Shown here: one piece after another, positions 6,158 through 7,852 of the stretch | Numbering within the stretch: the first letter of the stretch is position 1 | Layout: every line of letters begins with the position of its first letter | IMG/VR virus record: IMGVR_UViG_2529292910_000001 | Reading direction: 5' to 3' (one strand) | From: a virus | Taxonomy: Monodnaviria > Loebvirae > Hofneiviricota > Faserviricetes > Tubulavirales > Inoviridae | Length of the DNA: 9,828 nucleotides | Program-made: the position numbers and the translations under genes | Notes under the pieces: model-generated | What the model was told of the DNA's origin: nothing | Database searches by the model: none | Seen by the model: the letters and a program-made list of their open reading frames with translations, nothing else

Positions 6158-7852
6158 TCAGGATTTAAGAACAATAAAAAACGCCATCATGGATGCAACC
6201 AGTGTCATCACAACACGAAAGGTATTACGTACCGATTCGGTATCAAGCAATGTACAGAACTGATCCATAGTGTAATCCCGATCCCAGATATGAAAGGTAA
6301 ATACAGGACAGGTTCCGGCAGGAATGGACACAGAAAAATCACGCGCTTCAGGCCACATATCCCACAGAGGCGTAATTATCTGAGAACCGGATGGCGGAGA
6401 GTTAATATCAGGAACAGCAACAGAAGGAGCATTACCAAAATTCAGTTTAACTTCCGGTTCGACATTAACATCAACATTCACATTAGCCGTTCCGGAACCC
6501 TGAACCTGAACATCAACATTCGCGCCATTTGCCGTTGTCGTTCCTGTCGCTGTACCTGTACCTGTACCAGTGCCTGTTCCCGTTCCGGTGCCTGTTCCGG
6601 TGCCTGTACCTGTACCTGTTCCGGTGCCTGTACCTGTTCCGGTACCTGTTCCCGTTCCGGTACCTGTACCCGTTCCGGTACCTGTACCCGTTCCGGTGCC
6701 TGTACCCGTTCCGGTACCTGTGCCTGTGCCTGTTCCGGTGCCTGTACCCGTTCCGGTACCTGTACCCGTTCCCCCCGAAGGCACAGGAGGCGTATATTTG
6801 CCGCCAGAATCAGCATCATCACCATCTGTAGTAGCAGGAAGACCAAGAGCAGATGAAGAATCAGTAAACCCCAGAGAATCAGAGCTAAAATCATCATTCG
6901 ACGAGCGCCATGACTCCACATCAGCCGCAGAGAACGTCACCGGTACATTGTTGTAATAACCAGAACTACCCGCCTGTTCTGAAAGACCATTAAGCACCGT
7001 TGCAACATCCTGAGAATCAAGCGTAAGCCCGTTAATATACCCGTCAGCAGAAGAAAAACTCACAGGGTCAGTTGTCGCTTTTTCACAGGCATAAGATGAG
7101 GAACCCGCAGACCTGACAGCGATTTCACCATTATCACAGAGAGGATAATCATCAGCACCTGAAGCAGACATAAGCCCCAAAGGACATGCACTGTTATAAG
7201 TCACAAGAACAGAACGAAGTGAATATCTGGTTTCCCCCGTGCTCGGATGCACCCCATTTGGACAGGAAAAAACCCAGGTAGCTGAATCATGAGACAATGA
7301 AGAACGAACCAGAGGGCAACCACTGTAACCATTAACAGAAGCCATTTTGGCCAGAGCAGACCACGGCGACGTACTGTAAACACCTTCGCTTTGACTGATA
7401 ACCCCGCACCAGTAATTACGATTTGATGACGTCATCGCAGGCGTGGAATAAGTCACATCCCAGCCATTCGCAGAAAGCGCCAGATCAGCAACGTATTTAG
7501 CCGCAGGCTCACCAACAACATATAAGCCAAGAGCAGCAGAAGAAACGCCAAGACCATAAGCCAGATTCCCCCACGACAACCCCGCAAGCGGGACACCTGC
7601 ACGGGCAGCATAACCCGCTGCATAATCCGCAGCAGCCTGAGAATAGGCTTTTACTGTCGTTGCGATCGCAGCAGTATTTGCCCCCAGAGACGCCAGTTTT
7701 GACGTAAGAACACCCGTTAACTGGCGCTGAAAATCAGAGACCGGCGCCTGTTCAGCCGTCTGACTGAATGCCAGCGCATCAAAAGAATAAAAAGAGCCAC
7801 AGGAAAGAAAAATAACAGGAAATATTTTATTAAAGCGAAAGGATAAAAACAT
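6158..7852 (-). CDS. Adsorption/minor coat protein pIII-like (564 aa) with long Gly-Thr linker
   Basis: N-terminal signal peptide, N-terminal domains with several Cys, a 37x GT dipeptide linker, and a C-terminal domain ending in a hydrophobic anchor ([16 protein letters not shown]). It follows the major coat gene. SD GAGGA before the ATG. Confidence 0.8.
6551..6772 (-). repeat. Tandem hexamer repeat encoding (Gly-Thr)x37 inside gIII
   Basis: 222 nt of GGN-ACN units on the coding strand, with third positions varied (ggt/gga/ggc/ggg; aca/acc/acg/act). The peptide repeat is perfect while the DNA repeat is imperfect. Confidence 0.9.

Follow-up and report, generated by a model that had tools for sequence, protein, structure and literature searches.

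A tract of 37 Gly-Thr dipeptides, encoded at positions 6551-6772 of the inovirus record IMGVR_UViG_2529292910_000001 from IMG/VR (9,828 nt, hereafter the window), is probably a long flexible spacer in the pIII-type tip protein of a filamentous prophage integrated at dif in Escherichia coli, and the DNA beneath it an 18-nt minisatellite that varies in length without leaving the reading frame. The tract belongs to an open reading frame (ORF) of 564 amino acids (aa) on the minus strand (6158-7852), which occupies the position of the pIII gene and whose translation comprises a probable signal peptide, an N-terminal region, the GT linker and a C-terminal tip/anchor module. We propose that the tract tethers an N-terminal infection or receptor region (aa 29-357) to a tip-capping and anchoring C-terminal module (aa 445-564), in which case it would be the functional counterpart of the glycine-rich L2/G2 linker of pIII in the Ff phages (f1, fd and M13).

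A preliminary description of the window had reported (Gly-Thr)x37 at these coordinates, and translation of the minus strand of 6158-7852 reproduces it exactly. The longest (GT)n run in the ORF is 37 units (aa 361-434, 50% Gly), and 74 strictly alternating residues are far beyond chance. The low-complexity linker as a whole is slightly wider than the pure repeat, covering aa 358-444 (6521-6781, minus strand) as PSG-(GT)37-ATGTTTANGA. Within the array Gly is always encoded by GGN and Thr always by ACN, and seven hexamers are used: GGTACA (11 times), GGAACG (7), GGAACA (6), GGTACC (5), GGCACC (5), GGCACA (2) and GGCACT (1). Tandem Repeats Finder detected periods of 18, 36 and 54 nt with 80-83% matches, the 18-nt period running for 11.9 copies at 81% matches. 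At the DNA level the tract (minus strand) is thus a degenerate 18-nt minisatellite of 12 units and one additional hexamer, with the consensus GGTACCGGAACAGGTACA.

We then asked how the third codon positions are arranged, taking as a null arrays in which the observed synonymous codons had been permuted. Third-position identity at an offset of 18 nt was 0.56, against 0.35±0.05 in the shuffles (z=3.9), and at an offset of 6 nt it was 0.22, against 0.35±0.05 (z=-2.4). The earlier impression that third positions are shuffled is therefore correct insofar as pure 6-nt periodicity is depleted, but fails at the larger scale, where the synonymous positions follow an 18-nt period. The apparent scrambling is simply the use of three different hexamers within each 18-nt unit. 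All 30 deviations from the 18-mer consensus sit at third codon positions (0/0/30 at codon positions 1/2/3), which argues that selection conserves the peptide rather than the DNA, as had been proposed.

The companion proposal, that codon choice avoids instability of the DNA, did not survive. The longest exact internal repeat is 32 nt, longer than the 20.8±3.6 nt of the shuffles and reached in 2% of them, and adjacent identical hexamers occur at the chance rate (4 observed, 4.3 in shuffles). The relatives described below carry near-perfect 18-nt arrays that differ in copy number between near-identical prophages and inside which short-read assemblies break. The array is an active minisatellite, not a stabilized one. 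We also considered whether codons are chosen to avoid self-complementary GGTACC runs or hairpins in a single-stranded DNA genome and rejected this idea, as the trend was weak (minimum free energy of -29.6 kcal/mol, against -33.7±2.3 kcal/mol in synonymous shuffles; z=1.8).

Length variation, which the preliminary description had anticipated between strains, is borne out in the relatives of the gene. In the E. coli complete-genome collection, 13 chromosomes have homologous tracts. Clade A comprises two E. coli complete genomes in which the gene is 84-85% identical to that of the window; the tract takes the form (GS)n(GT)n(GTGTAT)n, and the linker segments measure 89 and 95 aa, against 87 aa in the window gene. 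Clade B is a sister clade with 43% protein identity once the repeat is excised, matched in at least 27 E. coli complete genomes among those listed. We compared 11 clade B alleles whose flanks are ≥98.7% identical at the nucleotide level on the N-terminal side and ≥99.7% on the C-terminal side. Their genes measure between 1560 and 1704 nt, and the 11 genomes show nine different lengths, all in frame; taken pairwise, the lengths always differ by a multiple of 6, and in 36 of 55 pairs by a multiple of 18. The clade B arrays are near-perfect 18-nt repeats (third positions c-t-a-g-t-a) that contain exact repeats of up to 142 nt. Three Dutch strains whose names begin with RIVM_C03 have alleles of 567, 561 and 549 aa.

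IMG/VR contigs extended this picture with six more clade B alleles (525-549 aa), clade D alleles of 527-561 aa and a clade C tract of the form (GTGTTT)7, and in the relative P0002 the tract reads (GTSTGTGTGTSTGE)n. Altogether, 26 of the 26 full-length alleles examined are in frame and keep the tract. The linker-equivalent segment spans 59-124 aa in the relatives, the shortest linker being about 59 aa.

The window array is the most degenerate of the set and has the shortest exact internal repeat, which is probably why this copy could be assembled. In the protein clusters examined (P0003, P0004 and P0006), database entries are mostly labeled 'partial' and end or start at the repeat, that is, at contig ends: fragments from the N-terminal side, about 346-364 aa long, stop within the repeat, and those from the C-terminal side, about 104-138 aa, start at or after it. 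Short-read assemblies therefore break in the tract and leave fragments, which explains why the family is poorly represented and labeled only "hypothetical". Protein word-index searches, run with either part of the protein (N-terminal or C-terminal) and with the repeat-excised alignment, yielded six proteins altogether, of which five are annotated as partial E. coli fragments, and two genome-contig scans gave no match. A repeat collapsed by sequencing error had been named as a concern; the identical 1695-nt gene occurs in two separate NCBI draft assemblies, GCA_000249675.2 (contig AIFZ01000020.1, which holds the window) and GCA_000249655.2, making a one-off assembly collapse unlikely. Nucleotide searches with the tract also hit plasmid genes with an LPD7 (relaxase-associated) domain, such as positions 3001-3206 of plasmid p2017.06.05CC_4 (L005) and the equivalent in many IncI-type plasmids. 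We rejected these as homologues: the match is about 70% by blastn, lies in another reading frame that encodes (QATEQE)n and reflects coincidental low complexity.

The tract also sits where a linker would be expected. An exhaustive HMMER profile search in which the repeat columns were kept outside the model collected 348 cluster representatives. Most of them share only the last ~95 residues, and all long proteins listed, mostly of 400-620 aa, carry this module at their C-terminus. The tract ends a few residues before the module starts, so that the suggestion of a domain boundary here holds, with a widely conserved module directly on one side. Among 100 family members, the 52 aa preceding the C module are 73% G/S/T/P/N/A/D, compared with 57% in the N-terminal body, and contain fewer hydrophobic residues at lower entropy. 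The dominant residue pair of this segment is PT in 25 proteins, AP in 15, GT in 13 and ST in 7. Since the position is conserved while the low-complexity sequence itself is not, the segment behaves as an interdomain spacer. Long Gly-X runs are restricted to the E. coli/Shigella clades, and distant members show only short (GT)3-6 at the same place.

The C-terminal module (aa 445-564; 6161-6520, minus strand) consists of an alternating xVxV stretch, the motif PLWDMWP, a hairpin bracketed by two cysteines and a terminal hydrophobic helix. Cys515 and Cys533 (6254-6310, minus strand) are the only invariant columns in a 101-sequence alignment. For the last 120 residues AlphaFold2 gave a model with a predicted local distance difference test score (pLDDT) of 80.4, in which a β-hairpin lies between the two cysteines (strands at 74-78 and 81-85 of the fragment) and a terminal helix of 25 residues comes next (fragment residues 95-119, pLDDT 90-94); the hydrophobic sequence of this helix (aa 539-563; 6164-6238, minus strand) suggests a membrane anchor. 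The C domain of f1 pIII contains a hairpin with Cys354 and Cys371, followed by the L4 linker and the M helix, and a 93-residue part of it is essential for assembly (PMC10175506). The predicted layout of the module is the same, with a hairpin between two cysteines and then a long terminal helix. As expected for pIII, the major coat gene stands on one side of the gene and the pVI, pI and pIV genes on the other. It is thus well supported, by position and architecture and not by homology to Ff g3p, that the ORF encodes a pIII-type tip (adsorption) protein, and the assignment of the preliminary description stands on these grounds. PHROG matches at the C-terminus of the ORF (phrog_7187, phrog_3942 and phrog_815) are all to families of unknown function, and a Foldseek search against the PDB returned no match. 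Structure prediction of the flanking domains, which had been recommended, was informative for the C module; the full-length AlphaFold2 model, built from a 7-sequence alignment, was unusable, being uniformly poor (pLDDT 33.5) with only scattered low-confidence strands.

From the position of the tract, the anatomy of its repeat, the confinement of its variation to synonymous sites and the length polymorphism of its relatives, we infer a flexible tether that evolves by slippage. Arrays of 18-nt (Gly-Thr-Gly-Thr-Gly-Thr) units would grow and shrink in frame, mostly in 18-nt steps, presumably through replication slippage or unequal recombination between units. Units that have acquired point mutations could then be amplified, giving rise to variant blocks such as GTGTTT. 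Selection would keep the peptide small, polar and Gly-alternating and the array long, with a substantial minimum, and would constrain its exact length only loosely. At 0.36 nm per residue, 74 fully extended residues would reach an estimated ~26 nm. The span quoted for L2 of f1 is 14.8 nm, about half of this estimate, and in Ff pIII the distance from N1-N2 to C must be kept for infectivity (PMC10175506).

Several observations weigh against this reading. No Pfam family matches the 564-aa ORF, and a PDB sequence search with it returned nothing even at E≤10. M13 g3p scored -0.2 bits against the C-terminal hidden Markov model of the family, below many shuffles and not significant, although its two cysteines align in register. 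The flexibility of (GT)n is assumed, and the poor full-length model is uninformative on this point. The window allele is known only as two identical copies, length variation being demonstrated in its relatives and not for this allele. Finally, the prophage may no longer be intact. The replication gene (rep) is reduced in the source contig to a 178-aa C-terminal remnant beside an IS1 transposase (L017, 7020-8303), within which the window stops (9550-9828), and L018, the second assembly, has shortened or split Zot and secretin genes as well, alongside an identical pIII gene. Judging from these sequences, the prophage is probably defective and decaying, with rep cut by IS1, and the gene may therefore no longer be used in its present host.

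An unlikely alternative is that the tract is a selfish or neutral minisatellite tolerated in a linker, whose composition and length are irrelevant beyond staying in frame and disordered. The wide length variation between near-identical prophages fits this view, as does the PT-, AP-, ST-, GS- or GT-rich sequence found at the same position in the wider family. The paper on the UPΦ prophages moreover cites a report that a longer linker gave IKe no selective advantage (PMC7307601). Pure neutrality is however difficult to reconcile with unit-to-unit differences that are synonymous in 30 of 30 cases, which indicates selection on composition. Gly alternates with T, S or A in every allele and none falls below ~59 aa, pointing to selection on both composition and minimum length. 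This alternative overlaps heavily with the spacer reading and differs from it only in degree.

We consider it improbable that the tract is a true contingency locus of a filamentous phage, in which fast in-frame slippage tunes the reach of the receptor-binding head relative to the tip, or its rigidity if the Thr residues are modified. If true, phage sub-populations would arise that differ in host range or infection efficiency, and the locus would do through length what phage tail fibers do through sequence diversification. The related claim, that rapid 18-nt slippage is itself selected and that the resulting variants alter reach, host range, infection efficiency or antibody recognition, is in our estimation very improbable. 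Nine lengths in 11 genomes with flanks ≥98.7% identical, the three allele sizes among the RIVM_C03 strains of the Netherlands and the spacing requirement of f1 (PMC10175506) would all agree with adaptive tuning of length. Neutral slippage predicts the same pattern, though, and the IKe precedent showed no fitness effect (PMC7307601). The window copy is also the least mutable of the set, its longest exact repeat of 32 nt comparing with up to 142 nt in the relatives.

It is highly improbable that the tract forms a structured or modified stalk, such as a β-turn ribbon, a silk-like sheet between pIII copies or a chain with O-linked sugars on its Thr residues, that would act as a rigid, protease-resistant rod. 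In favor of a stalk, Gly alternates strictly with a hydroxyl residue in five clades, glycan-coated linear dipeptide-repeat chains occur in nature (bioRxiv 10.1101/2025.09.30.679562) and staphylococcal SD repeats are glycosylated (title of PMC3794999). Against a stalk, no glycosyltransferase is encoded in the window, the wider family is Pro-rich or Ser-rich at the linker position with no shared Gly-X structure, and the full-length model contains nothing beyond its few low-confidence strands. An artefact, by assembly error or because the real product is a plus-strand ORF such as (Pro-Val)n at 6570-6956, is next to impossible: repeats of this kind do break assemblies, and the tract is also read through by three ORFs on the plus strand and one further ORF on the minus strand, but the same gene stands in two assemblies, 13 E. 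coli chromosomes carry homologous tracts, only the minus-strand frame has conserved protein domains on either side of the tract, and a 6-nt period without stop codons is expected to yield the other ORFs as a by-product.

A Shine-Dalgarno sequence, GAGGA, is located 8 nt 5' of the ATG of the ORF. Residues 1-28 (7769-7852, minus strand), among them Cys18, form a probable signal peptide, with a hydrophobic core and A-L-A before the presumed cut. The N-terminal region (aa 29-357; 6782-7768, minus strand), delimited from the clade alignment and presumed to be the receptor or infection part, opens with a conserved helical, hydrophobic and Gly-rich head segment (aa ~40-140), continues with a Cys-rich middle that varies between clades and ends in the conserved motif GGKYTPPV; its six cysteines lie between residues 149 and 256. 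Inside the head, a hydrophobic Gly-rich segment (aa 92-114; 7511-7579, minus strand) and its surrounding helices are conserved in every clade examined; something similar can be seen in some of the more distant family members. Such a segment is odd in the exposed head of a secreted adsorption protein and, from its sequence, might be a membrane-inserting element. Straight after the linker, aa 445-464 (6461-6520, minus strand) alternate polar residues with Val; similar patterns occur across the wider family (VNVNVTV, VDVHVD and VNVVNTPNVNV), and the AlphaFold2 model has low confidence over this stretch.

The gene is embedded in an inovirus prophage that occupies the minus strand from about position 3149 to the end of the window. 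Positions 866-3148 are E. coli chromosome (the ydeS/ydeT fimbrial region, 99.9% identity). A dif-like 28-mer, AGTGCGTATAAGGTATATTATGTTAAAT (3122-3149, minus strand), with 25 of 28 matches to E. coli dif, forms the prophage/chromosome junction exactly where chromosomal identity stops, at 3148, and the prophage is therefore dif/XerCD-integrated. On the minus strand, a gene V-type single-stranded DNA-binding protein (G5P) gene (9186-9533; Pfam PF02303, phrog_1199) and a major-coat-like gene of 76 aa directly upstream of the ORF (8014-8244; phrog_2186, virion structural protein, E=3.5e-21) precede it, and a pVI-like minor coat gene with DUF2523 directly downstream (5850-6137; Pfam PF10734, phrog_974), a pI/Zot assembly ATPase gene (4708-5832; Pfam PF05707, E=1.2e-24) and a pIV secretin gene (3425-4705; Pfam PF00263 and PF03958) follow. 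This is the V-VIII-III-VI-I-IV order of M13. A terminator-like hairpin with a 9-bp stem and a T-tract (7986-8006, minus strand) is found 8 nt past the stop of the coat gene, and in Ff a terminator is likewise placed after gene VIII. Between this hairpin and the pIII gene, a very hydrophobic 27-aa ORF, MIQSFFDVVIFIFGIVCGFAAVLGFSR (7883-7966, minus strand), could be a pVII/pIX-like minor coat protein. At the nucleotide level the prophage has no match in the phage collection, and at the protein level one weak C-terminal match only, to Dulem virus 52; Rfam has no match in the window.

On the chromosomal side, the ydeS ORF beside the junction is only 116 aa long. Positions 1-865 of the window are the end of a Mu-like prophage with a repressor-like helix-turn-helix protein at 74-619, and homologues of the Mu A/B transposase lie outside the window in the source contig (L017, 18197-21292). 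Related prophages use other chromosomal sites at the loci L001-L003, where the prophage has an IS110-family transposase gene at one of its ends and a gene for phospholipase D at the opposite one. Neither gene accompanies the clade B prophage of E. coli RIVM_C039227 (L004), which is tandemly duplicated; both pIII copies have the same protein accession, and the two arrays of this genome appear equal in length.

The closest functional precedents are the Ff phages, in which low-complexity Gly-rich spacers of pIII (G1/L1 and G2/L2) likewise include one directly before a C-terminal domain with a Cys-bracketed hairpin and a membrane helix. The Ff linkers are built from the (E/G)GGS motif in two shorter tracts, whereas the protein described here has one long tract (74-87 aa) of (GT)n from which GGGS repeats are absent, and Ff g3p has no detectable sequence homology to the domains that flank it. 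A second parallel comes from UPΦ, IKe and I2-2 (PMC7307601), likewise inovirus prophages of E. coli integrated at dif, where near-identical phages differ chiefly in the repeat count of the interdomain g3p linker. Across 229 genomes, UPΦ prophages of Enterobacterales vary mainly in how many GGGES repeats this linker has (PMC7307601), and the IKe linker diversifies in the laboratory with no measured fitness effect, according to the same paper. Their unit is the 5-aa GGGES, compared with a 6-aa/18-nt GTGTGT unit here in a different phage lineage, and the sister clades described here also differ from them in carrying an IS110-family transposase in place of dif integration.

Outside phages, the closest architectural analogue is the R region of the staphylococcal ClfA/Fbl proteins, an SD/SDSDSA repeat encoded by 18-bp units just before the anchor and so polymorphic that it serves in strain typing (PMC6533592). 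In Fbl-type R regions most differences between units are synonymous and length polymorphism arises through slipped-strand mispairing (PMC6533592). According to the title of Hartford et al. (1997), cited in PMC6533592, the binding domain needs the dipeptide repeat region for its functional expression at the surface. The R region of ClfA, Sdr and Fbl proteins thus shares with the tract its 18-bp units, mainly synonymous variation, location next to an anchor and length polymorphism. This likeness is one of analogy only, as the residues, the organism and the anchoring mechanism differ and there is no homology. Our literature search on Gly-Thr repeats in phage proteins found nothing specific.

Variable glycine-rich g3p linkers are already known from IKe and UPΦ, and the finding adds little conceptually; its new element is the GT unit, in a pIII family that lacks annotation. 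For typing these prophages, the tract could be used as a variable-number tandem repeat (VNTR) marker. In this family, which belongs to prophages of E. coli and Shigella, the length-variable Gly-rich pIII linker of the Ff, IKe and UPΦ phages recurs with GT and an 18-nt unit, and its recurrence with a different repeat makes such linkers a general design feature of filamentous-phage tip proteins.

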